Of a DNA stretch of 64,000 bases, positions 25,716 through 47,093 are shown in pieces; position 1 is the first letter of the stretch; the number at the start of each line of letters is the position of its first letter. The notes under the pieces are model-generated. The model was not told where the DNA came from. It did no database searches and was given only the letters and a program-made list of their open reading frames with translations. Position numbers and translations under genes: made by a program. The DNA lies in contig DASRGI010000190.1 in the NCBI GenBank assembly GCA_035651095.1, forward strand, positions 2,941 to 66,940, given 5' to 3'. The stretch comes from Acidimicrobiales bacterium (GTDB lineage: Bacteria > Actinomycetota > Acidimicrobiia > Acidimicrobiales > JAUTXP01).

Positions 25716-25731
25716 TCGATTGATCAATCGA
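25716..25731. promoter_or_regulatory. Perfect 16-bp palindrome TCGATTGATCAATCGA: operator site A, upstream of the paaA-like gene
   Basis: Read directly. It lies just downstream of a TTGACA (25685-25690) and TACGCT promoter-like pair. Related copies occur at 31145, 33305 and 44035. Confidence 0.65.
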
Positions 25732-25779
25732 CAAATTCTGTTGAACACCGATTCCCTGTTGAGCACCTTCGGAGGAGCG

Positions 25780-26691
25780 ATGACGGAGCAGGTCGAAGAC
25801 CGGGCCCAGGATCCCCGTCTGGCGGTCCGCTACGAGCGCTGGGACGAGATGAGCGACGAGTACCGCACCGCGGCGGCCAAGGTGGCGTCGTTCCAGGCGT
25901 TGGCCGAGCTCGTCGGCGTCCTCCCGTTCAACGAGTGGATGGACCGGGTGCCGGACTACGCCCGCAAGCAGATGCTCGTGGCCAAGATCCAGGACGAGGT
26001 GGGGCACGGGCATGTCACCGCCCGGGTGGCCGAGGACCTCGGCGTCACCCGTGAGGAGATCCTCGAGGACTTCGCTGCCGGCAAGACCAAGCTCCTCAAC
26101 ATCTTCCACTACGGCTTCGCGACCTGGGAGGAGATCGGCCCGGCCGCCCTGCTCATGAACTCGGCCGCCATCGTCCAGTTCCAGTCGCTCGACCAGGGCA
26201 CGTACCTGCCCTACACCCGGGCGCTCAAGAAGATCGAGAAGGAAGAGGGCTTCCACTACCACCACGCCCTCGACCTCACGCACCAGATCATGCAGGAGGG
26301 CGAGGCCGAACAGCGGGCCATCGTGCAGGACGCCTTCGACACCTGGTTCCCGCGCCTGCTGGCCTACTTCGGCCCGCCCGACAGCGATCGCTACCACGAC
26401 AACGTCGGGTACAAGTTCGGTCTGAAGGTCGACTCCAACGACGACCTGCGCCAGCGCTGGATCGCCAAGATCGTCCCCGTGTTCCGCGAGCTGGGCGTGC
26501 ACGTGTCCGACGACCTGGCCTCGTGTGACGAGGAGAGCGGCGAGTGGTCCTACGTCGCCGTCGACTGGGCGGCGTCCAAGAAGCTCATCGCCGAAGGCGG
26601 TCCCAAGTACCAGGAGTGGGTCGACACGGTCCGCGGCTCGCTGGAGCGCAACGAGCGCTACCGGAAGGCCGCTCTGGCGCTGGCGGCCTGA
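25780..26691 (+). CDS. paaA: PaaA-like diiron acyl-CoA epoxidase catalytic subunit
   Basis: RBS GGAGGAG. Two EXXH motifs (QDEVGHGH, EKEEGFHYHH). The length and sequence are typical of 1,2-phenylacetyl-CoA epoxidase subunit A. Confidence 0.8.
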   Translation: MTEQVEDRAQDPRLAVRYERWDEMSDEYRTAAAKVASFQALAELVGVLPFNEWMDRVPDYARKQMLVAKIQDEVGHGHVTARVAEDLGVTREEILEDFAAGKTKLLNIFHYGFATWEEIGPAALLMNSAAIVQFQSLDQGTYLPYTRALKKIEKEEGFHYHHALDLTHQIMQEGEAEQRAIVQDAFDTWFPRLLAYFGPPDSDRYHDNVGYKFGLKVDSNDDLRQRWIAKIVPVFRELGVHVSDDLASCDEESGEWSYVAVDWAASKKLIAEGGPKYQEWVDTVRGSLERNERYRKAALALAA

Positions 26692-26692
26692 C

Positions 26693-26998
26693 GTGCACGC
26701 GGCCGACGACGATCCCAACGCCTACGAGGTGTTCGTCCAGATAGGCGGCTCGGGCAAGCCCGTGCAATACGTGGGCAGCGTCCGGGGCGCCGACCCGGTG
26801 CTGGCTTGGCACGCGGCCAAGGAAGTGTTCACCCGGCGGGAGGACTGCACCCAGCTGTGGGTGGTACCCCGCGCCGCGGTGGTGCGCAGCGACGCCGAGG
26901 ACGAGCTCGTCCTGGCCAAGGGCAGTGCTCGGCGCTACCGACTCCCCAGCTATCCAAGCAGCCGCCGCCGGATGCGCAGCCGCTCGGAGGTGGCGTGA
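26693..26998 (+). CDS. paaB: PaaB-like epoxidase subunit
   Basis: About 101 aa, with YEVFVQ...GKPVQYVGSVRGADPVLAWHAAKEVFTRRE...LWVVPR. Confidence 0.8.
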   Translation: MHAADDDPNAYEVFVQIGGSGKPVQYVGSVRGADPVLAWHAAKEVFTRREDCTQLWVVPRAAVVRSDAEDELVLAKGSARRYRLPSYPSSRRRMRSRSEVA

Positions 26999-27741
26999 TC
27001 CATGCACCGCTGGTCGTCGCCTGGTGCGACGACCTCTTCCTCCAAGGCCACCAGCTCGCTCGCTGGATCACCGACTACGTCGATCTCGAGGAGTCGCTCG
27101 CCATGGGCTCCGTCGCCCAGGAACACCTGGCCCACGCGGCCGCGCTCCTCGGCGCCTGCGAGATGAACGAGTACGAACGCGACGCCCACGTGTACGAGCG
27201 GCCCGCGGACCAGTGGTTCCCGTCCGCCCTCAGCTTCCTGCCCCGGCAGGACTGGCCCGCCACCGTGGCCCACGCCCTCTTCCTCAACCAAGGGCTGCTG
27301 GTGTTGCGCAGCCACGTGCAGCTGCCCGACAAGCCGCGCGTCCAGCAGCTGGCCGAGATCATCCGGGCCGAGCAGGACCTGCACGCCCGCCACTGGGCAC
27401 GCTGGGTCCGGGTGTTCGCATCCGACCCCGAGCTGGCCGACGAGTTCGGCGACCGGGTGGCCAAAGCCGCGGGCATGGCGGTCGACCTCTTCGGTTTCCC
27501 GGCCGGCGTCGACGGTCCCGACGCTCTGGTGGGCGACACCGACCCGGCCGACATGCAGCGGGAGTGGGCCAAGGCGACCACCTGCGTCCTCGAGGAGGCC
27601 GGCATCACCGCACCGGACCTGCCGGACACCCCGCAGCCCCGCCAGCCGGGCGACACCCGCGAGCCGCTGACCCAGGTCCTCGCCGAACTGCGCTGGGCGC
27701 GGGGCCCGGGAGGTGCCAACCGCTACGAGGTCTACCGGTGA
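26995..27741 (+). CDS. paaC: PaaC-like epoxidase structural subunit
   Basis: Its GTG overlaps the paaB stop. A helical ferritin-like sequence (CDDLFLQGHQLARWITDYVDLEESLAMGSVAQEHLAHA). Confidence 0.7.
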   Translation: MIHAPLVVAWCDDLFLQGHQLARWITDYVDLEESLAMGSVAQEHLAHAAALLGACEMNEYERDAHVYERPADQWFPSALSFLPRQDWPATVAHALFLNQGLLVLRSHVQLPDKPRVQQLAEIIRAEQDLHARHWARWVRVFASDPELADEFGDRVAKAAGMAVDLFGFPAGVDGPDALVGDTDPADMQREWAKATTCVLEEAGITAPDLPDTPQPRQPGDTREPLTQVLAELRWARGPGGANRYEVYR

Positions 27742-28199
27742 CCTCGGCCATCGAGGACGCCCTGGCCAAGGTCGAGGATCCCGAGGTCCCGGTCACCCTG
27801 CTGGATCTGGGCGTGCTGCGGAGCGTCACCGTCGACGCCGACCGCGTGGTGGTCCTGCTCCGCCCCACCCGGCTCGGATGCCCGGGCCGCGACCGCATGG
27901 AGCGGGACGTGACCACCGCCGTGCACGCCGTCGACCCCCACCTGGCCGTCGAGGTGGCGTGGGAGCCGCTGCCCTGGCGGGAGCAGGACGTCACCCCCGC
28001 GGGGCGGGCCGCCCTCAAGGACATCGGGTACGCCGTGCTGCTGGGTGGGCCGGCCCGGTGCCCGTACTGCGGGTCGGAGGACGCGAAGTCGGAAGGCGAG
28101 TTCGGCGGCGCGCTGTGCAAGGCGCCCTACACCTGCCGGTCGTGTGGCTCGACGTTCGATGCCATGCGCTCGGCCCTGGCGGCGTTGGGAGAGGCGTGA
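27738..28199 (+). CDS. paaD: PaaD-like (DUF59/SufT-type) protein with a C-terminal Cys4 ribbon
   Basis: Contains VEDPEVPVTLLDLGVLR, plus CPYCGS...CRSCGS. Both start and stop overlap the neighbouring genes. Confidence 0.75.
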   Translation: MTSAIEDALAKVEDPEVPVTLLDLGVLRSVTVDADRVVVLLRPTRLGCPGRDRMERDVTTAVHAVDPHLAVEVAWEPLPWREQDVTPAGRAALKDIGYAVLLGGPARCPYCGSEDAKSEGEFGGALCKAPYTCRSCGSTFDAMRSALAALGEA

Positions 28200-28972
28200 G
28201 CGCAACCGAGGAGATCCTGTACGAGATCAACGGCGGCGTCGCTCGCGTCACCATCAACCGCGCCCACCGCATGAACGCCTTCACGCTGGAGGGCGCCGAG
28301 CGGTTGGTGACCTGCATCCAGCAGGCCGGGGCCGACCCGGAGGTCGGCGTCATCGTCCTCACCGGCGCGGGCGAGCGGGCCTTCTGTACGGGCGGGGACG
28401 TGGGCGACTTCGAGAGCTTCACCATCGACGTCGACCGGGCCATGAACACGACCCTGCTCCGCCTATCGCACGAACTGCGGACGTGCGGCAAGCCGGTGAT
28501 CGCACGGGTGAACGGCTACTGCATCGGCGCCGGCAACGAGCTCAACATGCTGTGCGACCTCACCATCGCGGCCGAGCACGCCCGCTTCGGGCAGACGGGC
28601 CCGAAGATGGGGAGCGTGCCCAACTGGTGGGTCACGCAACTGCTGCCCCGCTCGGTGGGCGAGAAGCGGGCGCGGGAGATCGTCTATCTCTGCCTCCAGT
28701 ACTCGGCCGAGGAAGCCAGGGACATGGGCTGGGTCAACCGCGTGGTACCCAAAGAGGAGCTGGACGCGGCCGTGGCCGAGTGGTGCGAGCGCCTGCTGAC
28801 CATGAGCCCGACCGCCCTGCGCCTGGCCAAGATGGCGATCAACCAGGGAAGCGACCAGGCGTTCGCGGCGGTGACGCAGGGCATGGAGCTGATCACCTTC
28901 TTCCACGACACCGACGAGTCGAGGGAAGGCATGCGGGCCTTCTTGGAGAAGCGGCCGCCCAAGTTTCGCTGA
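28196..28972 (+). CDS. Crotonase-superfamily enzyme of the MenB/BadI type
   Basis: NGYCIGAGNELNMLCDLTIAAEHARFGQTGPKMGSV...EKRAREIVYLCLQYSAEEARDMGWVNRVVP closely parallels the MenB/BadI signature recalled from memory. Confidence 0.75.
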   Translation: MSATEEILYEINGGVARVTINRAHRMNAFTLEGAERLVTCIQQAGADPEVGVIVLTGAGERAFCTGGDVGDFESFTIDVDRAMNTTLLRLSHELRTCGKPVIARVNGYCIGAGNELNMLCDLTIAAEHARFGQTGPKMGSVPNWWVTQLLPRSVGEKRAREIVYLCLQYSAEEARDMGWVNRVVPKEELDAAVAEWCERLLTMSPTALRLAKMAINQGSDQAFAAVTQGMELITFFHDTDESREGMRAFLEKRPPKFR

Positions 28973-29014: not shown

Positions 29015-29740
29015 CTAGAGCATGGCGTAGCCACCGTTGACGCTGAGCGTCTGACCGGTGATCCACTCCGACCGCTCGTCCAGGAAGAAGCGCACGGCGT
29101 TGGCGGCGTCCTCGGGCCGGCCCAAGCGGCCCATGGGATAGAAGCGGGGCATGCGCTCCAACTGCCGCTCGTCGAACGTCTCCAGGGCACCGGGTGTGAC
29201 CGTGGTGGAAAGCGACACGCAGTTCACGGTGATGCCGTGCTTGCCGACCTCTTTGGCCAGCGACCGGCTGAACCCGGCCACTCCCGCCTTGGCCGCGGCG
29301 TAGACGGCCACGCCGGGCTCGCCGGTGCGGCCGGAGTCCGACACGATGCTCACGATGCGGCCCCAGCCCCGCTCGATCATCCCGGGCAGCACGAGATGGC
29401 TGAGGTGGACGGGGCCCATCAGGTTGATGGCGATCTCGTCCTCCCACTGGGAAGGCGCGGCGTCGAGGAAGGGGCCCCACGTCCAGCGGCCGGCGTTGTT
29501 CACCAGCGCGTCGATCCGGCCGATGCCGGCCACGGCGGCGGCCAGTTGGTCGCGGTCGCGCACGTCGGCCACGTGGGTGGACACCCGCTCGGGCGGCAGC
29601 GCCGCGGCCATGGACTCGAGACGATCACCGTCCCGATCGACCGCGGCCACCACGTAGCCGGCGTCGACCAGTTCGGTGGCGATCTGCTCGCCCACGCCCT
29701 GGCCCGCGCCGGTGACCAGCGCGACCCGCTCTTCGCTCAC
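29015..29740 (-). CDS. SDR-family oxidoreductase
   Basis: 241 aa, with VALVTGAGQGVGE, the YAAAK catalytic motif and NAGR. Confidence 0.85.
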   Translation of the reverse strand: MSEERVALVTGAGQGVGEQIATELVDAGYVVAAVDRDGDRLESMAAALPPERVSTHVADVRDRDQLAAAVAGIGRIDALVNNAGRWTWGPFLDAAPSQWEDEIAINLMGPVHLSHLVLPGMIERGWGRIVSIVSDSGRTGEPGVAVYAAAKAGVAGFSRSLAKEVGKHGITVNCVSLSTTVTPGALETFDERQLERMPRFYPMGRLGRPEDAANAVRFFLDERSEWITGQTLSVNGGYAML

Positions 29741-30357
29741 GGTGCTTCCGGCAGGCCGATGAGGTTGCAGAACACGTCGGCCACGCCCGCGGGGTCGAGC
29801 GTCCGACCGGGCCGGTACCAGTGGTACATCCAGCAGACCATGCCCACCACGCCCTCGGTGACGATGGTGGTGGGGGCGTCGCTGGGGAAGGTGCCGTCGT
29901 CCTGTAGCTGCTTCACCAACTTGCTGATGCGGGCCATGAAGGCCTTCTCGTCCTTGGTCACCGCGGCCCGCAGGTCTTCGGGGAACGAGGAGTCGAGCTC
30001 CTTCCAGTAGACGGCGAACGTCTCCTGGTTCTCGATGACGGCGGCCACGAAGGCGCCGATGATGGCCCGGAGCTGGGCGGCCGGGGGCGCGTCGGGATCG
30101 GCGGCATCGAGCGAAGCCAGGATGTCGTGGTCGACCTGGAGGGCGATCTGGCGCAGCAGATCGTCCTTCGACCCGACGTAGTGGTAGATCGCCGGCTGGC
30201 TCAGCCCCACCTCGGCGGCGATCTCCTTGGTGGTCCCGGCCGCGAACCCCCGGCGGTAGAACACCAGCGCCGCGCCTCGCAGGATGTCCCGGCGCTTCCG
30301 CTCGAATCCCGCCGACCGGTCGATGACAGGCGCCGGCTCACTCGCTGATTTGGCCAC
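29737..30357 (-). CDS. TetR/AcrR-family transcriptional regulator
   Basis: 206 aa, with FYRRGFAAGTTKEIAAEVGLSQPAIYHYVGSKDDLL. It sits between two SDR genes on the same strand. Confidence 0.9.
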   Translation of the reverse strand: MAKSASEPAPVIDRSAGFERKRRDILRGAALVFYRRGFAAGTTKEIAAEVGLSQPAIYHYVGSKDDLLRQIALQVDHDILASLDAADPDAPPAAQLRAIIGAFVAAVIENQETFAVYWKELDSSFPEDLRAAVTKDEKAFMARISKLVKQLQDDGTFPSDAPTTIVTEGVVGMVCWMYHWYRPGRTLDPAGVADVFCNLIGLPEAP

Positions 30358-30384: not shown

Positions 30385-31152
30385 TCATGTGTGCCCGCAC
30401 GAGAGGCCACCGTCGACGTACAGTACTTGGCCGCTTACGTAGCCAGCCGATTCGCTCAGCAGAAACCCGCACACATTGGCAACGTCTGCCGCTGATCCGG
30501 CCCGGCGAGCAGGCACCCGGGACAGGAACTTCTCGTAGGCCGCGGGCGCCGCCTCCCGGAAACTGGCATTGGCCGGCGTCTCGATCACCCCCGGGCACAG
30601 CACGTTGGCCGTGATCCCGGAACGGCCACCCTCGATGGCCGCCGTCTTGGCCAACCCCACCAGGCCGGCCTTGGCCGCCGCGTAGTTGGCCTGCCCGAAG
30701 TTGCCGTCCTTGGCCACCGACGACATGGCCACGAACCGGCCGAAGCCGTGGTCGACCATCTGGGGCCACAGGGCTCGCAGCAGGCGAAAGGGCCCGGTGA
30801 GGTCGACGTCGAGCACGCGGCCCCAGCGGTCGTCGTCCAGCTTGGGCACGCGGTCGTCGAGGAAGATCCCGGCGTTGGCCACGCCGGCCACCACCGGGCC
30901 GAGGGCGGTGGCGTCGTCGATCAGGGCGGCCAGCGTGTCGCCGTCCGACGCGTCGCCCACCCGCGTCACCACGCCCGGGCCCTTCAGATCGGCCAGGCCG
31001 GCGCCGTCCAGGTCCAGGGCGGCGACGCGCCACCCGCCGTCGAGCAACACGCGAGCCACGGCCGCGCCGATGCCCTGGCCGGCGCCGGTGACGACAGCGA
31101 CGGCGCCCTCGGGGCGCGGTGGGTTGGACGCGGTGGTTCTTCGGTCGATCGG
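30385..31152 (-). CDS. SDR-family oxidoreductase whose Rossmann motif lies upstream of the first canonical start codon
   Basis: The ORF track starts at GTG 31059. However, the in-frame codons at 31060-31152 encode ...PEGAVAVVTGAGQGIGAA and contain no ATG, GTG, TTG or CTG. The catalytic YAAAK motif is present. The true 5' end is unresolved. Confidence 0.6.
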   Translation of the reverse strand, partial: PIDRRTTASNPPRPEGAVAVVTGAGQGIGAAVARVLLDGGWRVAALDLDGAGLADLKGPGVVTRVGDASDGDTLAALIDDATALGPVVAGVANAGIFLDDRVPKLDDDRWGRVLDVDLTGPFRLLRALWPQMVDHGFGRFVAMSSVAKDGNFGQANYAAAKAGLVGLAKTAAIEGGRSGITANVLCPGVIETPANASFREAAPAAYEKFLSRVPARRAGSAADVANVCGFLLSESAGYVSGQVLYVDGGLSCGHT

Positions 31153-31160
31153 TCAATAGA
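31145..31160. promoter_or_regulatory. Operator-like site B, TCGATCGGTCAATAGA (13 of 16 matches to site A)
   Basis: It lies in the 20-nt gap between the divergent SDR and crotonase genes. Confidence 0.4.
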
Positions 31161-31169
31161 ATCAGGTCC

Positions 31170-31985
31170 GTGCCAGAAGGTCAACGACCGCTCCTCGTCG
31201 ATCTCGACGACGGCGTGCTGGAGCTGACGCTCAACCGGCCCCACGTGCGCAACGCCCTCGACCACGACATGGAGGCCATGCTCGAGACGGCGTTGCAGCA
31301 CGCCCACGACGACCCGGCGGTCCGGGCCGTCACCCTCACCGGCGCGGGCGGTGCGTTCTGTGCGGGCGCCGACCTGTCGGCCATGAAGTCCCGACCCCAT
31401 CGGGCCGACCTGCCGCCCGAGGATCGGGTCCGGGCCCGGGCCGACGAGCGGGACCGCCTCACGTGGGCCTTCGCCAATGTGGTCCGCCTGGCCGAGCTGC
31501 CCCAGCCCACCATCGCTGCCCTGCAGGGGCCGGTCGCCGGCGCCGGCATCGGCCTGGCCGCGGCGTGCGACATCCGCATCGCGGCGGCGAGCACCCGCTT
31601 CGCCATGGCCTTCGCCCGCGTGGGCCTGCCCGGGGACTGGGGCGTCACCCTGCTGCTCTCCGACCTGGTGGGCCGGGCCCGGGCTCGCCAGTTGTTGTTG
31701 CGAGCGGCCGTGGTCGACGCCAAGGAGGCCCAGGGCCTCGGCCTGGTGGACGAGGTGGTGCCCGACGACCATCTGGACGACGCCCGGCGCACCCTGGCCG
31801 CCGAGTTGGCCGCGGGACCGTCGGCCGCCTACGCGGCCACCAAGCGGCTGACCGCCCTGCCCGGCCTGCGCGACCGCATCCGGCAGGAGATCGAGGCCAC
31901 GCTCGAATGCCAGGAGACGGCCGACCACGCCGAGGGCGTGCGGGCCTTCCTGGACAAGCGCCCGCCGACGTTCACTGGCCGCTGA
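31170..31985 (+). CDS. Enoyl-CoA hydratase/isomerase family protein
   Basis: GTG start within ORF 31119..31985. Contains LTGAGGAFCAGADL...GPVAGAGIGLAAACDIRIA...EGVRAFLDKRPPTF. Confidence 0.85.
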   Translation: MPEGQRPLLVDLDDGVLELTLNRPHVRNALDHDMEAMLETALQHAHDDPAVRAVTLTGAGGAFCAGADLSAMKSRPHRADLPPEDRVRARADERDRLTWAFANVVRLAELPQPTIAALQGPVAGAGIGLAAACDIRIAAASTRFAMAFARVGLPGDWGVTLLLSDLVGRARARQLLLRAAVVDAKEAQGLGLVDEVVPDDHLDDARRTLAAELAAGPSAAYAATKRLTALPGLRDRIRQEIEATLECQETADHAEGVRAFLDKRPPTFTGR

Positions 31986-32005
31986 CCCCACCCCCCCCTT
32001 CCGTT

Positions 32006-32048
32006 CTCGTGACCCACACTGGGTCTCTGGCGGCGCCAGCGTCACGAG
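32006..32048. terminator. Nested inverted repeat (CTCGTGAC...GTCACGAG with inner CTGGCG-G-CGCCAG) between convergent genes
   Basis: Read directly. No U-tract is present. Confidence 0.4.
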
Positions 32049-32061: not shown

Positions 32062-32466
32062 TCAGGTGGCGTCGGCCCGGCCCGCCTCCAGGACCCACTC
32101 GGGCAGGGGTTGGGGCTTCATGGTCGACATGTCGACCCACACCCGCACGATGCGGCCCCGCCCCACGACCGTGCCCTCCTGGTTGGTGAACTCGTGCTCG
32201 CACGTGAAGCTCGTGCGCCCGCCGGGGACGATGCGGATGTGCTGCAGGATGCTGTCCCCCGCGCCGGTGGGCGCCACGAAGTCGCACTCGGCGTGGACGG
32301 CCGGGCACGTGGTGCCCGAACCGGCGTGCTCGGCCACGGGATGGCCCAAAGCCTCCATGTAGTCCTGGTCGCCCTCGGACATGTACCGGAAGTAGCTGGC
32401 GAAGAAGATGAGCCCGGACAGGTCGTCGTCACCCAGGTAGACGGTCCGCCGCCGTTCGAAGGGCAT
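32062..32466 (-). CDS. Hotdog-fold acyl-CoA thioesterase (4HBT/YbgC-like)
   Basis: 134 aa, with VYLGDDDLSGLIFFASYFRYM... Confidence 0.7.
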   Translation of the reverse strand: MPFERRRTVYLGDDDLSGLIFFASYFRYMSEGDQDYMEALGHPVAEHAGSGTTCPAVHAECDFVAPTGAGDSILQHIRIVPGGRTSFTCEHEFTNQEGTVVGRGRIVRVWVDMSTMKPQPLPEWVLEAGRADAT

Positions 32467-32858
32467 CAGGAACCAGCCACCCAGGCGACCTCGCCTCGCG
32501 CCACCTCGGTGCCGTCGGCCCCGACGGCCCGCACGTCGGCCACCACCAGGTCGCCTTCGGTGCCGCGCACGGTCACCTCGGTGGTGAGCACGCTGCCCGG
32601 GAACACCGGGGCGGTGAGGTCGACCTTGAGGCGGCGCAGGTTGTCGACGCCGACGTGACGGCTCACCGCCGCGCCCACGTAGGACACGGCGAAGGTGCCG
32701 TGGGCGATGACGCTCGGGAGCCCGATGTCCTTGGCGAACTCGTCGTCCACGTGCACGGGGTTGGGATCGCGCATGGCCACGGCCATGTAGGCCAGGCGCA
32801 TGCGGCTGATCTCCGGCGTGGTGAGGGGCGGGGGGGTGGTGGGGGTGGGGTCGGTCAT
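32466..32858 (-). CDS. MaoC-like (R)-specific enoyl-CoA hydratase subunit (HadB/ChsH1-like)
   Basis: Internal ATG of ORF 32466..33173. Contains RDPNPVHVDDEFAKDIGLPSVIAHG. Confidence 0.8.
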   Translation of the reverse strand: MTDPTPTTPPPLTTPEISRMRLAYMAVAMRDPNPVHVDDEFAKDIGLPSVIAHGTFAVSYVGAAVSRHVGVDNLRRLKVDLTAPVFPGSVLTTEVTVRGTEGDLVVADVRAVGADGTEVARGEVAWVAGS

Positions 32859-33304: not shown

Positions 33305-33320
33305 TCGATCAATGAATCGA
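33305..33320. promoter_or_regulatory. Operator-like site C1, TCGATCAATGAATCGA (13 of 16 matches to site A)
   Basis: It lies in the divergent region between the MaoC pair and the thiolase gene. Confidence 0.45.
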
Positions 33321-33372: not shown

Positions 33373-33416
33373 TTGACACCGGAGGTATCCGTAGGTTAAA
33401 TAGATCGATAAATCGA
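33373..33416 (+). promoter_or_regulatory. TTGACA / TAAATA promoter-like pair followed by the short palindrome TCGATAAATCGA (site C2)
   Basis: An AT-rich tract upstream of the thiolase ATG. It has the same TCGAT/ATCGA half-sites as site A but a 2-nt spacer. Confidence 0.4.
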
Positions 33417-37948: not shown

Positions 37949-37979
37949 GACGACCACCTGAGGAATCCCCCGGACAACC

Positions 37980-39963: not shown

Positions 39964-40739
39964 TGCTCGAACTGCGGCAGGTGGAGGTCGTCTACAACAA
40001 GCTGGCCACGGCCGTCTCCGGCGTGTCGTTGTCGGTGGAGCAGGGCGCCATCACCACGCTGCTGGGTACCAACGGGGCGGGCAAGACGACAACGCTCAAG
40101 ACCATCTCGGGGTTCCTGCGTTCCGAGAACGCCGACATCACCGAGGGCGAGATCCTCTTCGAGGGCAGGGACATCCGGGGCCTGGCGCCCCACGAGGTGA
40201 GCAAGCTGGGCATCGCCCTGGTGCCCGAGCGGGACAAGGTGTTCGACACGCTCACGGTCGACGAGAACCTGCGGGCTGCGTCAGTCACCAGCGCGGGGGT
40301 GACCGAGGCCTACGAGCTGTTCGAGCGCCTCAACCAGGTGCGCACCCGCCTGGCCGGGTACCTGTCCGGCGGCGAGAAGCAGCTGCTGGCCATGGCCATG
40401 GCCCTGAGCACGAAGCCCCGGCTGCTGCTGGTGGACGAGCTGTCGTTGGGCCTGGCGCCCATCATCGTCTCCCGCTTGCTGGCCGACCTCCAGCGGGTCC
40501 AGAAGGACCTGGGCCTGACCGTGCTGCTGGTCGAGCAGAACGCGGCCGCCGCCCTGCGGGTGGCGAACTACGGGTACGTGATCGAGGACGGGCGCATCGT
40601 GTTCGACGGCGACGCCGACCGCCTCCTGAACCACGGCGACATCATGGAGTTCTACCTGGGCGCCGAGGACGACGAGGGCGAGCGACGGTCGTACCGGGAC
40701 GTGCGCCAGTACCGGAGGAAGCGCCGGTGGTGGGGATGA
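39963..40739 (+). CDS. ABC transporter ATP-binding protein (LivF-like)
   Basis: Its ATG overlaps the upstream stop. Walker A GTNGAGKTT; signature LSGGEKQLL. Confidence 0.85.
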   Translation: MLELRQVEVVYNKLATAVSGVSLSVEQGAITTLLGTNGAGKTTTLKTISGFLRSENADITEGEILFEGRDIRGLAPHEVSKLGIALVPERDKVFDTLTVDENLRAASVTSAGVTEAYELFERLNQVRTRLAGYLSGGEKQLLAMAMALSTKPRLLLVDELSLGLAPIIVSRLLADLQRVQKDLGLTVLLVEQNAAAALRVANYGYVIEDGRIVFDGDADRLLNHGDIMEFYLGAEDDEGERRSYRDVRQYRRKRRWWG

Positions 40740-40755
40740 CGGTGGTGGGGATGAC
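40726..40755. repeat. Exact 15-bp tandem duplication GGTGGTGGGGATGAC x2 at the livF-like/livG-like junction
   Basis: Read directly. It duplicates the overlapping stop/start junction (GGGGATGA). Confidence 0.9.
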
Positions 40756-41554
40756 GGCGCCGGCGGGCGGGCCGATCTTGGAGGTGCGGGACGTCAGCAT
40801 CCGCTTCGGCGGGGTGGCGGCCGTGTCGGACACGAGCTTCACCGTGGGCGACGACGAGTTGGTCGCCCTGGTGGGCCCCAACGGTGCCGGCAAGACGGCG
40901 CTGCTCAACGCCATCTGCGGCATCTACCGGCCGTTGTCGGGAACGATCCTGCTCGACGGTCGCGAGATCCAGGGCAAGCACGTGCACCGCATCGCGGCGA
41001 TGGGCGTGGGACGGTCGTTCCAGCACGCCGAGGTGCTGGAGGAGCTCACGGTCGTCGAGAACCTCCTTGCTGCCCGCCACCTCGCGCTGGGCAGCAACGT
41101 GCTGGCCATGGGGCTGTACTTCGGGCCCTACAAGCGGCGGGAGATCGCGGCCCGGCAGGCGATCGAGGAGGTCATCGACTTCTTCGAGATCGAACGCTAC
41201 CGGCACCAGCACGTCGGGTCGCTGGCGTTCGGCGTGCAGAAGATGGTGGGCGTGGCCCGCGCCGTGTGCATGGAGCCGCGGGTGTTGCTGCTGGACGAGC
41301 CCTCGTCGGGGCTCACCCGGCAGGAGAAGGAGGACTTCGCCCGCTTCCTGCTCCGGCTCCGGTACGACCGCAAGCTGCCCGTGCTGTGGGTCGAGCACGA
41401 CATGCAGATGGTCACCGACCTGGCGGACCGCCTGATCGTCCTCGACTACGGCCGCAAGATCGCCGACGGCGTGCCCAACGAGGTCATGCGCCTCCCCGAG
41501 GTGGCCGCCGCCTACCTGGGCGTGGAGACCGAGGAGCTGGCCGACGGCGTTTGA
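40727..41554 (+). CDS. ABC transporter ATP-binding protein (LivG-like)
   Basis: Walker A GPNGAGKTA, and LEVRDVSIRFGGVAAV. Start ambiguous (GTG 40727, ATG 40736 or ATG 40751) because of the duplication. Confidence 0.85.
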   Translation: MVGMTVVGMTAPAGGPILEVRDVSIRFGGVAAVSDTSFTVGDDELVALVGPNGAGKTALLNAICGIYRPLSGTILLDGREIQGKHVHRIAAMGVGRSFQHAEVLEELTVVENLLAARHLALGSNVLAMGLYFGPYKRREIAARQAIEEVIDFFEIERYRHQHVGSLAFGVQKMVGVARAVCMEPRVLLLDEPSSGLTRQEKEDFARFLLRLRYDRKLPVLWVEHDMQMVTDLADRLIVLDYGRKIADGVPNEVMRLPEVAAAYLGVETEELADGV

Positions 41555-41588
41555 CCGCGCTTCGTACGGTATTTCGGACGAAGCGCGG
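41555..41588. terminator. Perfect 11-bp stem hairpin (CCGCGCTTCGT / ACGAAGCGCGG) between convergent operons
   Basis: Read directly. It starts 1 nt after the livG-like stop. Confidence 0.55.
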
Positions 41589-41603
41589 CCAAAACTCGTG
41601 CGG

Positions 41604-42032
41604 TTAGCGGCGGGCGAGGATGCCGGTGGTGTCGAACGACAGCATCGGCTCGCCGGCTTCGTCCCGCAGCATGAACGCCCAGTTGACGATGCCGTGCCCC
41701 TTGGAGCTGACCCGATGTTCGCCGATGGTGACGGTGGCGCGCACGGTGTCGCCCGGGCGCAGGGGCTTGTACCAGCGCACGCGCTCCATGGCGATGCCGC
41801 CCCGCCCGTCCTCGCCCTGCAACCCCATGTCGAGCCACAGCTGCCACGCCACCGCCAGCGTCATGAACCCCGATGCGATGAGCCCGCCGAACGGGCTGGC
41901 GGCCGCCGCCGCCGGGTCGGTGTGCATGGGCTGGTTGTCGTAGCGCCGGGCGAACTCGATCATCTCGTCCTGTGACACCGTGCGGGTGCCGGACACGAAC
42001 TCCTGCCCCTCCTTGAAGTCCTCGAACTTCAT
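41604..42032 (-). CDS. MaoC-like dehydratase (hotdog fold)
   Basis: 142 aa from the internal ATG of ORF 41604..42731. Contains YDNQPMHTDPAAAAASPFGGLIASG. Confidence 0.8.
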   Translation of the reverse strand: MKFEDFKEGQEFVSGTRTVSQDEMIEFARRYDNQPMHTDPAAAAASPFGGLIASGFMTLAVAWQLWLDMGLQGEDGRGGIAMERVRWYKPLRPGDTVRATVTIGEHRVSSKGHGIVNWAFMLRDEAGEPMLSFDTTGILARR

Positions 42033-43198
42033 GCCCGGCCTCCCGTGAACAACGACGATGACAGTGCGTTCAGCAAGCTCTCGGTGGTGCCGCCCGCGAT
42101 GGTCCAGCCTCGCAGCTGGCGGTACCACAGCTCGGCTGGGTGCTCCCGGTCCCGCACCATGCCCCGCCACCCCTGCAACTGCACGGCCTGCTCGGCCAGC
42201 TGCACGGCCGTGCGGGACGCCAGCAGCTTGGCCGCGGCGGCCTCGCGGGCGGGCGGGAACCGGTGCTCGTCCCGGTCGGCCAACCGGGCGGCCCGGTAGG
42301 TCAACAGCCGGGCCTGCTCCAGTGCCAGCGCCAGCTCGGTGACGCGCCAGCGCAGCCCTTGGAAGTCGGCCAGCGGCTGGCCGAACTGGTGCCGCGACTC
42401 CAGGTGGGCGACGACGTGGTCGAGCACGGCCTGCCCGGCACCCACGCACATGGCGGCGATGCCCAGACGCATGGTGTTGTAGCTCTGCATGGCGGGCTTG
42501 AAGCCCTCGACCACCACGCAGTCGGCCGGCACCACGCAGCGGTCGAAGCGCACCACCGCCTCGGGGATGGCGTTGCCGCCGATCTTGTGCCACGACCGCT
42601 CGACGGTCACCCCGGGTGTAGCCCCGTCGACCAGCACGTACCCCAGGCCCGACAGGCCCGGGCCCGGCCCGCCGGCGAACCGGCCCAGCACCAGGTGGGC
42701 ACCTGCCAGACCGCCCGCGGTCACGAAGCACTTGGTGCCCTCGACCACGACGGTGTCGCCGTCCCGTTCGAACGACGTGGCGACGTCAGCCAACGACGAG
42801 CCTGCGTCCTCCTCGGTGATGGCGATGGTGACGAGCGTCGTGCCCGCCAGCACGCCCGGCAGCAACCGCTTTCGCAACGACTTCGAACCGAGCCGGCTGA
42901 TGGCGTAGGGCGGGCCGTTCAGCGCGATCTGGGCCACCTCGGCGAGCGTGAGCGAGCGGTAAGCGAGCTGTTCCTGGACGACCACCGACGTCAGCCGGTC
43001 GGCGCCCTGGCCACCGTCCTCCTTGGGGAGGGTCAGGCCCAACATGCCGGACGCGGCCAAGGCCTCGACCGACTCGGCCGGGTACCGGGCCTCCTCGTCC
43101 CACCCGTACTCGTCCACGGGCAGCCCGTCCGCCACCGTGCGGGCCCAGTCCCGGGCGGCCACGTGGGCGGGCGTGAGGTCGAGGTCGGCGGCGTCCAT
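42029..43198 (-). CDS. Acyl-CoA dehydrogenase family protein
   Basis: 389 aa from the internal ATG of ORF 42029..43963. Contains ITEEDAGSSLADV, QFGQPLADFQGLRW and a C-terminal IAGGTTESL. Confidence 0.85.
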   Translation of the reverse strand: MDAADLDLTPAHVAARDWARTVADGLPVDEYGWDEEARYPAESVEALAASGMLGLTLPKEDGGQGADRLTSVVVQEQLAYRSLTLAEVAQIALNGPPYAISRLGSKSLRKRLLPGVLAGTTLVTIAITEEDAGSSLADVATSFERDGDTVVVEGTKCFVTAGGLAGAHLVLGRFAGGPGPGLSGLGYVLVDGATPGVTVERSWHKIGGNAIPEAVVRFDRCVVPADCVVVEGFKPAMQSYNTMRLGIAAMCVGAGQAVLDHVVAHLESRHQFGQPLADFQGLRWRVTELALALEQARLLTYRAARLADRDEHRFPPAREAAAAKLLASRTAVQLAEQAVQLQGWRGMVRDREHPAELWYRQLRGWTIAGGTTESLLNALSSSLFTGGRA

Positions 43199-44019
43199 CA
43201 CGCCAGCCCGAACAGGCGAGCGGCGTTGCCCCACATGACGGCCTCGATGGTGGCGGCCTCGTACGGGAGCTCGGCCATCTGGGCGATGAGCCGGGAGGGC
43301 GGCGGGGACGACGGCCAGTCGGTGCCCCACACCACCTTGTCCCGCACCCGGTCCAACTCGGGGAACCACTCGGGCAACCGCTTGGGAGGCAGCCCCGACA
43401 GCTCCATCCACACGTTCTGCCGCATGCGCACGAGGGAGTACACCTGGCTGGTCCAGAACCCCCGGCCGGCGTGGGCGCAGATCAGCAGGAGGTCGGGGAA
43501 GTCGGCCGCCACCTCGTCGACCAGCAGCGGGTCGCAGAACCGCATCTTGGCGCCGGGAAACACCGACGACCCGACGTGCACGAGCACCGGCACGCGCAGG
43601 CGCTCGGCCACCTCGTACAGCGGGTAGAGGGCCCGGTCGTTGGGCGGCAGTTGGTACGTGGCCGGGTGGACCTTCAGCCCGCGTGCCCCGGCGGCGATGG
43701 CGGCCTCGAACCGGGCCCGGGCTCCCGGCTCGGCCCGAGGGTCGTACTGCACGAAGGGCAACAGCATCCCGTCCGACGCGGCCGTGTAGGAGAGCGTCTG
43801 CTCCTCCACGGCCCGCCGCCCGGGCGGGATGGCGATGGCGTGGGTGACGCCCTGGCCCTTGAGGTAGGCGGCCACGCGTGCCCCGTCGACGTCGTGCGAC
43901 AGCAGCTCCATGGTCTTGGGGTCGCTCAGCTCGCTCGCCAGGTGCAAGCCCTCGGGGATCCATTCGCTCGTGGCGCCCACGTGGACGTGGAAGTCGAAGA
44001 CACGCTCGATATCGGCCAT
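43198..44019 (-). CDS. Amidohydrolase-2-type metal-dependent TIM-barrel hydrolase
   Basis: 273 aa, with VFDFHVHVG (HxH), LICAHAG and VVWGTDWP. Confidence 0.75.
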   Translation of the reverse strand: MADIERVFDFHVHVGATSEWIPEGLHLASELSDPKTMELLSHDVDGARVAAYLKGQGVTHAIAIPPGRRAVEEQTLSYTAASDGMLLPFVQYDPRAEPGARARFEAAIAAGARGLKVHPATYQLPPNDRALYPLYEVAERLRVPVLVHVGSSVFPGAKMRFCDPLLVDEVAADFPDLLLICAHAGRGFWTSQVYSLVRMRQNVWMELSGLPPKRLPEWFPELDRVRDKVVWGTDWPSSPPPSRLIAQMAELPYEAATIEAVMWGNAARLFGLA

Positions 44020-44034: not shown

Positions 44035-44050
44035 TCGACTGATCAATCGA
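44035..44050. promoter_or_regulatory. Operator-like site D, TCGACTGATCAATCGA (15 of 16 matches to site A)
   Basis: It lies in the 87-nt divergent region between the amidohydrolase and aldehyde dehydrogenase genes. Confidence 0.6.
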
Positions 44051-44106
44051 GAGTTGGCCTGGGGTTGGCGCAAGCCTGGGGCATGACGACGCGGAGGGGA
44101 AAGGCC

Positions 44107-45480
44107 ATGACGACGTTCACCGTGCGGGCCCCGCACGACCAATCCGTAGTGGGCCGGGTGGAGCTGGACGACGAACGGTCGGTCGACCGCAAGGTCGCCG
44201 CCGCCCAGAAGGCCATGGCCGACTGGTCCGGCCGCAACGCCATGGAGCGGGCCGAGGTCCTCCTGCGCATCGCCTCCGCCACTCGCGACGACATGAGCCG
44301 CCTGGCCCATGCCCTCTCCGTGGAGCAGGGCAAGACGATCAAGGAGGCCTTCCTCGAACTCGACCGTTACGTCGGCCCCTTCGTGCAGTACGCGGGCCTG
44401 GCCACGTCGGTCGGCGGGCGCCGGGTGTCGCTGGGCGGCGGCGTCGAAGGCGTGGTGGAGCGGGAACCGGTGGGCGTGGCCGTGGGCGTGGTGCCGTGGA
44501 ACTTCCCGGCCTCGCTCTTTGCCAGCAAGGCGGCCGCCGCCCTGGCCGCCGGGTGTGGCTTCCTCATCAAGCCGGCCGAGAGCACCAGCATCATCACCAT
44601 CGAGCTGGCCAAGCTGGCCCAGCAGTTCCTGCCCGAGGGCTTGGTGGACGTGGTGGTCGGCGGTGCCGACGTGGGCCGCTACCTCGTCACCCACCCGGGC
44701 GTGGCCCGCGTCGCCTTCACCGGTTCCACCGGCGTGGGCAAGGACATCGCCGCCCACGCGGGGGCCGCGCTGAAGCGCCTCAGCCTGGAGCTGGGCGGCT
44801 GCGACCCCTTCGTGGTGCTGGAGGACGCCAACCTGCGCTCGGCCACCCGCTCGCTCATGGGCACCCGCTTCTACAACGCCGGCCAGGTGTGCGTGGCGCC
44901 CAAGCGGCTGATCGTCCACCGGGCCGTGGCCGACGAGATGATCGACGCCGTGTCCGAGCGCATGGCCCGCATCGTCGTCGGCCCTGGGCGCGACCAGCAC
45001 AGCACCATGGGCCCCCTGCACACCGAGTCGGGCCGGACGAATCTCGAAGCGCAGGTGGCCGACGCCGTGGACAAGGGCGCCGAGTTGGTGGGCGGCGGTC
45101 GGCCCGACGAGCCGGGCACGGCCAGCGGCTGGTTCGTCAACCCGGCGCTGGTGATCGACCCGCCGGCCCATGCCCGGGTGCGCACCGAGGAGACGTTCGG
45201 CCCTGTGCTCACCGTGGTGCGGGTGGACGACGACGACGAAGCGGTGGCCGTGGCCAACGAGACGCCGTTCGGGCTGGGCGCATCGGTGTGGAGCGCGGAC
45301 CTGGGCCGGGCTCGGGCGCTCGCCCGGCGCATCCCTGCCGGGTACACGTGGCTCAACGCGCTGGGCCGGGTGTACGACGAGCTGCCCTTCGGCGGCGTGC
45401 GGGACTCGGGCTTCGGCCGGGAGCACGGCGTGGAAGCGCTCGACTCCTTCCTCGAAGACCGCACCTACGTGATCGGCTGA
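44107..45480 (+). CDS. NAD(P)-dependent aldehyde dehydrogenase
   Basis: RBS GGAGGGGA. Contains VVPWNFP, FTGSTGVGK, LELGGCDP and FYNAGQVCVAPKR. Confidence 0.9.
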   Translation: MTTFTVRAPHDQSVVGRVELDDERSVDRKVAAAQKAMADWSGRNAMERAEVLLRIASATRDDMSRLAHALSVEQGKTIKEAFLELDRYVGPFVQYAGLATSVGGRRVSLGGGVEGVVEREPVGVAVGVVPWNFPASLFASKAAAALAAGCGFLIKPAESTSIITIELAKLAQQFLPEGLVDVVVGGADVGRYLVTHPGVARVAFTGSTGVGKDIAAHAGAALKRLSLELGGCDPFVVLEDANLRSATRSLMGTRFYNAGQVCVAPKRLIVHRAVADEMIDAVSERMARIVVGPGRDQHSTMGPLHTESGRTNLEAQVADAVDKGAELVGGGRPDEPGTASGWFVNPALVIDPPAHARVRTEETFGPVLTVVRVDDDDEAVAVANETPFGLGASVWSADLGRARALARRIPAGYTWLNALGRVYDELPFGGVRDSGFGREHGVEALDSFLEDRTYVIG

Positions 45481-47093
45481 TGGACTTCAGCTTCGCCGAG
45501 GTGCTCGGCGCCCTCGCCGTTCCCTTCGCCGCCAAGGAAGCCGTCGTCGACGGCGAGCGCCGGTTCACGTGGGCCCAGTTCGACGCCCGCACGCGCGGGT
45601 TCGCCGCCTTCCTCGCCAGGCTGGGGCTGCACCCCCGCGCCGAGCGGGCCGACCTGGCCAACCACGAGTCGGGTCAGCACCACCTGGCCATCTACCTCCA
45701 CAACTCGGCCGAGTTCCTGGAGGCACTGGTCGGTGCCACCCGCGCCCGCCTGGCCCCGTTCAACGTCAACTACCGGTACCAGGCCGCCGAGCTGACCTAC
45801 CTCCTCGATGACGCGTCGCCCTCCGTGGTCGTCTACGAGGGCGCCTTCGCCCCCGTGCTGGCCGAGGTGCTGCCCCGGTTGCGGCGCCGCCCGGTGCTCG
45901 TGCAGGTCGACCGGGGCCACGGCGACCTGCTGCCCGATGCCATCCCCTATGAGGCGGCGGTGGCCGCGCACAGCGCCCTGCCCGAGGCCAACGGCGACGA
46001 CCTCTACATCCTCTACACGGGAGGCACGACGGGCATGCCCAAGGGCGTGCTCTGGCGGCAGGCCGACATCTTCGTCACCGCCCTCGGGGGCCGGAACTTC
46101 CGGGGCGGCGGGGCTGAGTGGTCAAGCGTCGAGGACCTGGTGGAGGCCGCCATCAAGCGCCCCGGCCCTCGCCTCCTGCCCGCCCCGCCGTTCATGCACG
46201 GCACGGGCCAGTGGACCGCCCTCCAGGCCCTCGTCGCCGGAGGCACGGCCATCATCCAACCGGGCGCCACCCGCTTCGACCCCCACACCGTGCTCGACAC
46301 CATCGAGCGGGAGCGGGTCGAAGTGCTGGTGATCGTGGGCGACGCCTTCGCCCGTCCCCTGGTGGAGGCCCTCGACGGGAGTGACCGGCACCGGGACCTG
46401 TCGTCGCTCGTCGCCATCGTCTCCAGCGGCGCCGCCGTCACCAGCACGACCAGGGAGGCCATCGCCCGCCTCCTCCCGCACGTGAAGCTGAAGGACGTGG
46501 TCGGGTCGTCCGAGAGCGGGCCCCAGGCCGACGCCCAGGAGGGCCGGGTGTTCGTGCCCCGGCCGGGCACGCTGGTGGTGTCGACCGATCGCGCTCGGGT
46601 CCTGTCGCCGACCGGCGAAGCCGGCGAGGAAGGGTGGCTGGCGTCGTCCGGCCGCGTACCCCTCGGGTACCTGGGCGACCCGGCCAAGACGGCCGACACC
46701 TTCCCCGTCATCGACGGCGTGCGCTTCTCCATCCCCGGCGACCGGGCGCGCTACGTGGACGACGGTGCCATCGAGGTGCTGGGCCGGGACTCCATGACCA
46801 TCAACACCGGGGGCGAGAAGGTGTTCGCCGAAGAGGTCGAGTCCGTGCTGTGCGACCACCCAGCGGTGGCCGACGCCCTGGTGGTGGGCAGGCCCAGCGA
46901 GCGTTGGGGTTCCGAGGTCGTGGCCGTGGTACAGCTCACCAGCGCCACGACCGACACCGAGTTGCTGGCCCACTGCACCGACCACCTGGCCCGCTACAAG
47001 GCGCCCAAGCAGATCGTGTTCGTCGACGCCGTGCGCCGCTCGCCGGCGGGCAAGCCCGACTACGCCTGGGCGTCCGAGGTGGCCAGGGCCTGA
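45480..47093 (+). CDS. AMP-dependent acyl-CoA synthetase (FadD3-like, medium size)
   Basis: Its ATG overlaps the upstream stop. Contains YILYTGGTTGMPKGV, RDSMTINTGGEKV and LARYKAPK. Confidence 0.85.
   Translation: MDFSFAEVLGALAVPFAAKEAVVDGERRFTWAQFDARTRGFAAFLARLGLHPRAERADLANHESGQHHLAIYLHNSAEFLEALVGATRARLAPFNVNYRYQAAELTYLLDDASPSVVVYEGAFAPVLAEVLPRLRRRPVLVQVDRGHGDLLPDAIPYEAAVAAHSALPEANGDDLYILYTGGTTGMPKGVLWRQADIFVTALGGRNFRGGGAEWSSVEDLVEAAIKRPGPRLLPAPPFMHGTGQWTALQALVAGGTAIIQPGATRFDPHTVLDTIERERVEVLVIVGDAFARPLVEALDGSDRHRDLSSLVAIVSSGAAVTSTTREAIARLLPHVKLKDVVGSSESGPQADAQEGRVFVPRPGTLVVSTDRARVLSPTGEAGEEGWLASSGRVPLGYLGDPAKTADTFPVIDGVRFSIPGDRARYVDDGAIEVLGRDSMTINTGGEKVFAEEVESVLCDHPAVADALVVGRPSERWGSEVVAVVQLTSATTDTELLAHCTDHLARYKAPKQIVFVDAVRRSPAGKPDYAWASEVARA

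Follow-up and report, generated by a model that had tools for sequence, protein, structure and literature searches.

The stretch of DNA considered here (64 kb from an Acidimicrobiales bacterium, called the window at its full length) carries, between 25.7 and 47.1 kb, one regulon assembled around four genes that resemble paaABCD of the phenylacetyl-CoA epoxidase. In our reading, held with moderate confidence, it is a repressor-controlled regulon of an uncultured actinomycete for the O2-dependent catabolism of a carboxylate through coenzyme A (CoA) thioesters, in other words a 'hybrid' pathway, and the carboxylate is probably a ring-containing acid degraded as its CoA ester. The argument starts from a palindromic operator repeated across the region, and from a catalytic subunit that falls outside the bona fide epoxidases and has one iron ligand replaced. 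A preliminary description of the region had already proposed a hybrid pathway for an aromatic or alicyclic carboxylate, and is borne out in part: the genes do form one unit, which is not an ordinary paa regulon and likely relies on another electron supply.

A common operator across the region

Genes were called from GC3 and codon-position bias, the window having a G+C content of about 70%, and annotated with Pfam and NCBIfam, which recovered every gene previously listed for 25.7-47.1 kb (Table 1). The cluster starts on the + strand with the PaaA-, PaaB-, PaaC- and PaaD-like genes and a crotonase gene of MenB/BadI type, followed on the opposite strand by a short-chain dehydrogenase/reductase (SDR), a TetR gene and a second SDR, and then by a second crotonase. 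A hotdog thioesterase and a MaoC pair lie again on the opposite strand, before the gene of an SCPx-type thiolase, that of a FadD-type ligase (644 aa) and the five of a Liv-type ABC importer; a single MaoC, an acyl-CoA dehydrogenase (ACAD) and an amidohydrolase_2 gene form the last opposite-strand block, and an aldehyde dehydrogenase (ALDH) with a second FadD-type ligase closes the cluster. Many of these genes overlap: the junctions B/C, C/D and D/crotonase by 4 nt (GTGA), and further on the pairs SDR/TetR, ACAD/MaoC, amidohydrolase/ACAD and ALDH/ligase. The start-to-stop overlap claimed earlier for all four paa-like genes thus holds for B/C and C/D, but not for A/B, which are separated by a 1-nt spacer.

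These blocks are tied together by a 16-bp palindrome, TCGATTGATCAATCGA. Five sites with at most three mismatches from it occur in the region, against 0.08 expected, and none elsewhere in the 64 kb. The motif is AT-rich, and all sites lie in four gaps between divergent transcription units; together with the operon overlaps, these four divergent promoter gaps cover all eight transcription units. Given this shared operator in four promoter gaps, the region is one regulon, in agreement with the earlier claim that its genes form one unit. Position 25716, formerly taken as the start of the cluster, is in fact the first base of the palindrome, homology placing the start of the PaaA-like gene at ATG 25780. 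The gene for a VOC/glyoxalase-fold protein on the other side of this gap is an uncertain member of the regulon.

The repeated palindromic operator is accompanied by a TetR-family gene, as in a TetR-controlled regulon, and the encoded protein is predicted to bind the 16-bp palindromes. Among the related loci compared (designated by L-numbers), the motif recurs about 35-50 nt upstream of paaA in L002, L007, L010, L091 and L093, and about 190-205 nt upstream in L011; it was not found at 74 bona fide PaaA loci.

A separate clade with a changed iron ligand

The four subunit genes are contiguous and coupled in the order A-B-C-D, with the Pfam families of paa, as in PaaABC(D)E systems. The PaaA-like protein (303 aa) has the two ExxH diiron motifs reported before, EVGH at residue 73 and EGFH at residue 156, and is about 36-37% identical to enterobacterial PaaA (tblastn), whose solved structures are its best matches in the Protein Data Bank (PDB). 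An NCBIfam scan (E <= 1e-5) returned only TIGR02156, the BoxB model not being matched, and the TIGR02156 score of 234.1 bits lies under the equivalog cut-off of 280; the PaaA proteins of L017, L030, L034 and L064, used as controls, reach 394-446 bits. L012, a member of the same clade as the window protein, scores 215. The PaaB-, PaaC- and PaaD-like proteins are likewise all under their NCBIfam equivalog cut-offs.

In a neighbor-joining tree of 59 sequences with 100 bootstrap replicates, the PaaA-like protein belongs to a separate clade (98/100), called here the Asn-type clade, and a wider group with the same active-site change is found in 84/100 replicates. Identity is at least 53% inside the clade and at most 44% outside, and in a library clustered at 50% identity the score falls from 480 to 261 bits at the best match outside the clade (44% identity). 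Both the score and the tree bear out the earlier view that the protein stands apart from bona fide phenylacetyl-CoA epoxidases, with which it does not group.

What distinguishes the clade in the active site? In Escherichia coli PaaA, iron is bound by Glu42, Glu72, His75, Asp126, Glu155 and His158, Phe108 positions the phenylacetyl group, and a 'lysine bridge', the proposed entry of electrons from PaaE, has three acidic residues, Glu49 and Asp126 among them (PMC4498308). In E. coli numbering, the clade keeps Glu42, Lys68, Glu72, His75, Phe108, Glu155 and His158, that is, five of the six ligands. The sixth, Asp126, is replaced by Asn in 16 of 16 clade members and in 4 near relatives, whereas 47 of 51 other PaaA homologs have Asp. 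In addition, Glu49, present in 38 of 51 other homologs, is Phe or Tyr in the clade (Phe in the window), and Gly127 is Ser. The only name given by NCBI to clade members is 'Phenylacetic acid catabolic protein'. Two short metagenome contigs encode an identical copy of the window's PaaA-like protein.

At its C-terminus, a zinc ribbon, the PaaD-like protein (27738-28199) matches a haloarchaeal 'PaaE' model of NCBIfam; as this model is a 56-residue zinc ribbon, the 'PaaE' of that model set is not a reductase.

Related loci and their neighbourhoods

Only two close-relative loci came from a scan of a genome collection, and six clade or near-clade loci, together with 74 ordinary PaaA loci, from a metagenome scan; a plasmid collection held one clade member, on a plasmid of Streptomyces sp. 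Mut1. The neighbourhoods of 11 clade loci were compared. Orthologs of 13 cluster genes recur around PaaABCD-like genes in L007 and L010, including the coupled crotonase, the SDR/TetR pair, the thioesterase, the MaoC pair, the ACAD, the single MaoC and the ALDH; in this comparison, orthologs of the ligase and the ABC importer are 56-66% identical, and no close ortholog of the second ligase or of the amidohydrolase was found in either locus. L015, on a contig of 52% GC, has a 51%-identical PaaA amid ligases, an ACAD, an ALDH, a MaoC pair, a DUF35-fused thiolase and a TetR_C_24 protein, and in L006 and L012, of the same clade, a PaaK-type or PaaK-sized ligase adjoins.

In the closest relative, L002 (10203-13625), whose PaaA is 89% identical, an SDR gene and two HGD-D genes come after paaABCD. 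Genes of this kind encode enzymes of the 2-hydroxyacyl-CoA dehydratase/benzoyl-CoA reductase type, normally oxygen-sensitive, and they adjoin here those of a diiron enzyme that depends on oxygen. Labelled as a metagenome-assembled genome (MAG) of Betaproteobacteria, the contig may be mis-binned, since the closest relatives found are high-G+C, actinomycete-type sequences. L005 and L006 are paralogous Asn-type paaABC(D) sets on a single contig of an Actinomycetota MAG (JBFLYK010000001.1, 103-145 kb), separated by about 21 kb: one stands beside a PaaK-type ligase, and the other, without paaD, adjoins an operon for a soluble diiron phenol/alkene monooxygenase with its own reductase. Finally, L008 and L094 (Streptomyces sp. 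Mut1 plasmid NZ_CP120998.1, 40.6-58 kb) represent a distant subclade, of 57-59% identity and with a PaaB-PaaC fusion, flanked on one side by two KAS III genes and on the other by an SDR-crotonase-ligase-MFS-P450-FMO-ADH-ALDH-GMC set, which suggests a different function, possibly lipid-related or biosynthetic.

Electron supply

No reductase or ferredoxin was found in the 64-kb window, either in six-frame motif scans (patterns for plant-type and adrenodoxin-type 2Fe-2S, FNR RxYS/GxGxxP, Rieske and 4Fe-4S) or by Pfam annotation of the flanking genes, the motif matches falling only in non-coding frames or in one Cys-rich protein of secreted type. This confirms that the window has no PaaE, and such a class IA reductase (FAD/NAD and 2Fe-2S domains) was not found beside the 11 clade loci either. 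The lack of paaE was also considered as a marker of the clade, and rejected, bona fide outgroup PaaA loci being likewise without a nearby paaE.

A candidate donor is provided by the sister subclade (L007 from Prauserella flavalba, L010, L092 and L093; bootstrap 80). In all four loci, an FdxA_Actino equivalog is encoded downstream of paaD (139-152 bits, cut-off 125), with a crotonase gene in between in L007, and all four also encode a thioredoxin reductase (TrxR)-like flavoprotein of about 340 aa without CxxC, divergent from paaA in L092 and L093. Judged by sequence, this gene set has the architecture of a ferredoxin:NAD(P) reductase and a 7Fe ferredoxin feeding the oxygenase. As FdxA-type ferredoxin and flavoprotein are found in four sister loci out of four, a ferredoxin is the likely donor in place of PaaE. 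Because the donor genes are absent from beside the oxygenase genes in the window's own subclade (window, L002, L005, L006, L012 and L091), a ferredoxin donor for the window is an extrapolation from the sister subclade, and the window could share this mechanism only by way of donors encoded elsewhere. The earlier claim of a non-textbook electron supply thus gains from the sister loci, and its original argument, the missing paaE, is weak when taken alone.

Enzymes of the predicted pathway

The coupled crotonase scores 271.8 bits against BadI (TIGR03210, cut-off 467.6), and 259.6 and 238.7 against MenB models (cut-offs 343-380); its best solved structures are MenB, and a 78% ortholog directly follows paaD in L007. 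BadI is the best match, as its former label implied, but far under the cut-off, and the sequence places the protein in the MenB/BadI branch of crotonases, in neither named family. By analogy, it is a candidate for the hydrolytic (retro-Dieckmann) ring cleavage of a beta-keto thioester. Orthologs of the adjacent SDR (58-61%) stand beside TetR in L007 and L010. As for the second SDR, no ATG, GTG or TTG occurs between its Rossmann motif AVAVVTGAGQGIGAA and the stop at 31150-31152, a spot overlapped by operator O2, and its start could be non-canonical (an ATC codon is present), mutated, or affected by a sequencing error. The second crotonase resembles PaaG, alternative oxepin-CoA hydrolase and EchA19 to much the same degree.

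The 644-aa ligase has a 63% ortholog in L010, adjoining the same ABC genes, and import followed by CoA activation, as proposed before, is the natural reading of the thiolase-ligase-ABC operon; no informative solved relative was found for the LivK-type substrate-binding protein. Orthologs of the ALDH are 66-72% identical in L007, L009 and L010, and its 1-nt overlap with the second ligase suggests an entry route from aldehyde to acid to CoA ester. The family of the remaining hydrolase, Amidohydrolase_2, spans lactonases, decarboxylases and hydratases.

The canonical paa set is missing, as had been stated. The C-terminal domains of the ligases are AMP-binding_C_3 and AMP-binding_C, where a PaaK-type ligase would have AMP-binding_C_2; there is no 3HCDH-type (PaaH) protein and no type-I thiolase (PaaJ), and ALDH and MaoC are encoded by separate genes. 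The absence of PaaZ has to be restricted to the fusion, as the single MaoC resembles the C-terminal hydratase domain of PaaZ, its sole NCBIfam match. In contrast, the analogy drawn with ChsH/Ltp steroid enzymes is weak: the possibility that the thiolase and the MaoC pair form a ChsH/Ltp2-type aldolase system, supplying an aldehyde to the ALDH, was ruled out, as the thiolase keeps its catalytic Cys and has no DUF35 partner.

Table 1. Genes and operators of the regulon, with the VOC/glyoxalase-fold gene at its edge
Feature	Position	Strand	Basis and remarks
VOC/glyoxalase-fold protein, 134 aa	25287-25691	-	Pfam Glyoxalase_6; divergent from paaA-like, with the operator-containing gap in common
Operator O1, TCGATTGATCAATCGA	25716-25731		Perfect 16-bp palindrome; 49 nt upstream of paaA-like start
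PaaA-like catalytic diiron subunit, 303 aa	25780-26691	+	PF05138, E 2.5e-48; TIGR02156 234 bits, under cut-off of 280
PaaB-like bridging subunit	26693-26998	+	PF06243; TIGR02157 48.8 bits, under cut-off of 85.45
PaaC-like structural subunit, without ExxH	26995-27741	+	PF05138; TIGR02158 67.7 bits, under cut-off of 133.35
PaaD-like, DUF59 and C-terminal zinc ribbon	27738-28199	+	PF01883, PF23451; TIGR02159 90.1 bits, under 108.15
MenB/BadI-type crotonase	28196-28972	+	ECH_1; coupled to paaD-like; BadI 272/468, MenB 260/380 bits
SDR	29015-29740	-	Best named matches FabG-like, BadH-like; operon with TetR gene
TetR-family regulator, TetR_N and TetR_C_24	29737-30357	-	Pfam; 51% orthologs in L007, L010
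Second SDR	30385-31146	-	Pfam; Rossmann motif AVVTGAGQGIGAA in frame upstream of first GTG (31059)
Operator O2, TCGATCGGTCAATAGA	31145-31160		Between divergent second SDR and second crotonase
Second crotonase	31170-31985	+	Start revised to GTG 31170; below all NCBIfam cut-offs
Hotdog acyl-CoA thioesterase (4HBT_2)	32062-32466	-	Pfam; 45% ortholog in L007
MaoC hydratase, catalytic partner	32466-32858	-	DPNPVH motif; 62% ortholog in L007
MaoC-N/FAS1_DH-type partner without catalytic motif	32864-33277	-	Pfam; 61% ortholog in L007
Operator O3, TCGATCAATGAATCGA	33305-33320		Motif scan
Operator O4, TAGATCGATAAATCGA	33401-33416		Motif scan
SCPx/BbsB-type thiolase	33459-34622	+	NACASAS, nucleophilic Cys kept; no DUF35; best solved relative BbsB
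Acyl-CoA ligase, 644 aa	34630-36564	+	AMP-binding and AMP-binding_C_3; operon with importer
LivK-type substrate-binding protein	36601-37896	+	Peripla_BP_6
Two LivH/LivM-type permeases	37980-38867, 38860-39963	+	BPD_transp_2
Two ABC ATPases	39963-40739, 40727-41554	+	ABC_tran, BCA_ABC_TP_C
Single MaoC hydratase	41604-42032	-	DNQPMH; only NCBIfam match TIGR02278, positions 524-661
Acyl-CoA dehydrogenase (ACAD)	42029-43201	-	Pfam/NCBIfam; 51% ortholog in L010
Amidohydrolase_2 protein	43198-44019	-	Pfam; no NCBIfam match; one weak solved-structure match
Operator O5, TCGACTGATCAATCGA	44035-44050		Centred in the 45-bp amidohydrolase/ALDH gap
NAD(P)-dependent ALDH, general class	44065-45480	+	Not PaaZ/BoxD type; 1-nt overlap with next ligase
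Second acyl-CoA ligase, AMP-binding_C type	45480-47093	+	Passes NCBIfam PRK07798 subfamily cut-off, 619 vs 543

Proposed pathway and alternative explanations

In the pathway that we propose, the TetR protein would be released from the palindromes by the substrate or its CoA ester. The acid would be imported via the Liv-type ABC system and converted into its CoA ester by the 644-aa ligase of the importer operon, a related aldehyde being possibly fed in through the ALDH-ligase pair. The PaaABC(D)-like diiron enzyme would then oxygenate the ring of the CoA ester, with electrons supplied by a soluble ferredoxin system encoded elsewhere (FdxA and a TrxR-like flavoprotein, as in the sister loci) rather than by PaaE, and the oxygenated ring would be opened hydrolytically by the coupled MenB/BadI-type crotonase together with the adjacent SDR. 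An R-specific beta-oxidation set (ACAD, MaoC hydratases, SDR and SCPx-type thiolase) would shorten the side chain or the ring-opened product, and the hotdog thioesterase would free CoA from dead-end esters. We infer that the cluster thus offers non-orthologous counterparts for every Paa or Box step, in addition to the R-specific beta-oxidation set.

Several points weigh against this pathway. With Asn in place of Asp126, one carboxylate ligand is lost, and the metal centre or the reaction could be a different one. Ferredoxin and reductase genes adjoin the oxygenase genes in none of the six loci of the window's subclade. A PaaE-like gene is also missing within 10 kb of paaABCD in four bona fide PaaA loci, so that a missing adjacent paaE is weak evidence alone, and a paaE acting in trans from elsewhere in the genome is possible. 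The crotonase, SDRs, ACAD and ALDH are below every equivalog cut-off, and the steps assigned to them are analogies. Within the Asn-type clade, the accessory genes differ widely from locus to locus. For the clade as a whole the case is built on sequence, and literature searches found no description of it.

Could the locus be simply an ordinary phenylacetate regulon that has been split, with paaE, paaK, paaZ and paaJ elsewhere in the genome and phenylacetyl-CoA as the epoxidised substrate? The Pfam families and gene order are those of paa, Phe108 is conserved, bona fide paaABCD loci without an adjacent paaE exist, and a PaaK-type or PaaK-sized ligase adjoins the genes of L006 and L012. This is nevertheless improbable, in view of four subunits under cut-offs that the controls pass easily, of the separate clade and of the replaced iron ligand; moreover, the ligases, thiolase, dehydrogenases, hydratases and regulator of the locus itself are non-orthologous and share one operator, which leaves canonical paa genes with little to do. 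The replaced ligand, invariably Asn, together with Phe or Tyr at position 49 and the absence of a redox partner in all six loci of the window's subclade, would also fit a PaaA-like protein that is not a working diiron oxygenase and has a different metal site with a non-redox or unrelated role. We give this little credence, because the five other ligands, Lys68 and Phe108 never vary, the B, C and D subunits are still present with their genes coupled in translation, and the sister subclade, with the same Asn, keeps an adjacent ferredoxin and reductase, which argues for redox chemistry.

An alicyclic-acid pathway, of the cyclohexanecarboxylate or naphthenic type, deserves more weight, although we consider it rather unlikely. 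A saturated ring would be opened through beta-oxidation by the ligase, ACAD, crotonase, BadH-like SDR and BadI-like hydrolase, and the PaaABCD-like enzyme would hydroxylate or desaturate a saturated or second ring, with no arene epoxidation. BadI and BadH are indeed the best named matches of the coupled crotonase and the adjacent SDR, the ACAD matches cyclohexanecarboxyl-CoA dehydrogenase models below cut-off, the Asn-for-Asp change could accompany a different oxygen chemistry, and the distant subclade lies among P450, FMO, ADH and ALDH genes typical of aliphatic oxidation. However, the Bad/Ali matches are far below cut-off (272/468, 180/431 and 139/575), the crotonase matches MenB models nearly as well as BadI and has MenB as its best solved structures, and the known Bad/Ali route of cyclohexanecarboxyl-CoA ring cleavage needs no oxygenase. 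The greatly differing accessory genes of the relatives, and a second ligase and amidohydrolase without close ortholog in L007 or L010, would also be expected if unrelated lipid and aromatic operons, sharing no pathway, had come to lie side by side by chance in these 21 kb, a very remote prospect contradicted by the rare AT-rich palindrome in four gaps across the region and nowhere else in the 64 kb, and by the 13 orthologs that recur around PaaABCD-like genes in L007 and L010.

Beyond the O2-dependent CoA-thioester pathway that we favour for this locus, we tentatively advance, as a conjecture that may well be wrong, that the Asn-type PaaABCD represents a new class of multicomponent acyl-CoA oxygenase, in which a PaaABC core with altered metal site is combined with a 7Fe FdxA and a TrxR-type ferredoxin:NAD(P) reductase. 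Such an oxygenase would initiate an undescribed aerobic CoA-dependent pathway of Actinomycetota. There, a MenB/BadI-type retro-Dieckmann hydrolase, and not PaaG/PaaZ or BoxC chemistry, would open the oxygenated ring of a CoA ester of aroyl, arylalkanoyl or bicyclic naphthenic type. To our knowledge, PaaABCE and BoxAB are the only two diiron systems that use oxygen to attack aromatic CoA esters. If true, the Asn-type enzymes would add a third lineage, in which the metal ligand, the electron donor and the ring-opening enzymes are different; it would widen the known chemistry of 'hybrid' aromatic and alicyclic degradation in soil actinomycetes, and correct the default annotation of these proteins as 'phenylacetic acid catabolic protein'. 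The conserved operator and the TetR gene offer an experimental handle on the substrate, through inducer screening.

Flanking genes and non-coding features

The flanks encode, according to Pfam, thioredoxin, KatG/FurA, a peptide ABC system, transporters, regulators and the like, as well as mycothiol-type enzymes. These last enzymes point to Actinomycetota, and so does the taxonomy of the best matches. A UvrA-like ABC ATPase paralog (10951-13343, + strand) is split by a frameshift near 12.2-12.4 kb: the open reading frame (ORF) at 10951-12411 has Walker A, signature and Walker B motifs followed by nonsense, and the ORF at 12240-13343 continues in another frame, which makes it either a pseudogene or an assembly error. 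The gene at 54148-55410 (+ strand) belongs to an operon that also encodes MauE-like and DsbD-like membrane proteins; its product, 420 aa long and without Pfam match, is Cys-rich in the N-terminal half and contains a unit of about 39 aa (GYWLVAxDGGIFAFGTAxFFGS...) repeated five times in tandem.

Strong GC-rich hairpins, likely terminators or attenuators, occur between convergent genes, at 41555-41603, 37912-37950 and 32005-32046; one of them (CCGCGCTTCGT...ACGAAGCGCGG) separates the MaoC gene from that of the last ABC ATPase, and another directly follows the gene for the substrate-binding protein. The second ligase gene shares the last 34 bp of its 3' end (47060-47093) with the 3' end of a convergent PAS-GGDEF-EAL gene (47060-49312), and a second, truncated PAS-GGDEF-EAL gene at 62668 runs off the end of the window.

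Comparison with known systems

The closest likeness is with PaaABC(D)E of E. coli, Klebsiella and Pseudomonas (PDB 3PW1 and 4IIT), which has the same four Pfam families in the same order, a PaaA that aligns over its full length without large gaps, and a C subunit without iron ligands, as here; paa clusters also have PaaR and PaaI, as the window cluster has a TetR regulator and a hotdog thioesterase. The differences are the Asn, Phe and Ser found in place of Asp126, Glu49 and Gly127, the absence of PaaE, PaaK, PaaH, PaaJ and a fused PaaZ from the window, the FdxA-type ferredoxin and TrxR-like flavoprotein of the sister loci, and the MenB/BadI-type crotonase that stands in the place expected for PaaG-type chemistry.

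Aerobic CoA-dependent 'hybrid' pathways of the Box type (BoxABCD of Azoarcus and Burkholderia) follow the same logic, namely diiron oxygenation of an aromatic CoA ester, hydrolytic opening by a crotonase-fold enzyme, and an ALDH. The BoxA reductase contains 4Fe-4S clusters and FAD and binds only transiently (PMC4498308), a make-up that resembles the ferredoxin and flavoprotein of the sister loci. Unlike in the window, BoxB is a monomer of another family, and the window ALDH is of the general class, not BoxD-like. With AliA/AliB/BadK/BadH/BadI of Rhodopseudomonas palustris, the window has in common a ligase, an ACAD, a crotonase, an SDR and a BadI/MenB-type crotonase; BadI and BadH are among the best named matches, all of them far under equivalog cut-offs, with MenB nearly as good as BadI.

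The beta-oxidation part recalls other systems: BbsB of BbsAB is the best solved relative of the thiolase, and the MaoC pair combines one catalytic and one non-catalytic partner, as do ChsH1/ChsH2 and HadAB. In relatives, the thiolase is fused to a zinc-ribbon/OB (DUF35) domain of ChsH2 type, which the window is without; unlike Ltp2-type aldolases, the window thiolase keeps its nucleophilic Cys (NACASAS), and no other steroid genes are present. Taken together, the system falls outside PaaABCDE, BadI, MenB, BoxB and ChsH/Ltp2 as these are defined, and works like the 'hybrid' pathways of Paa and Box.

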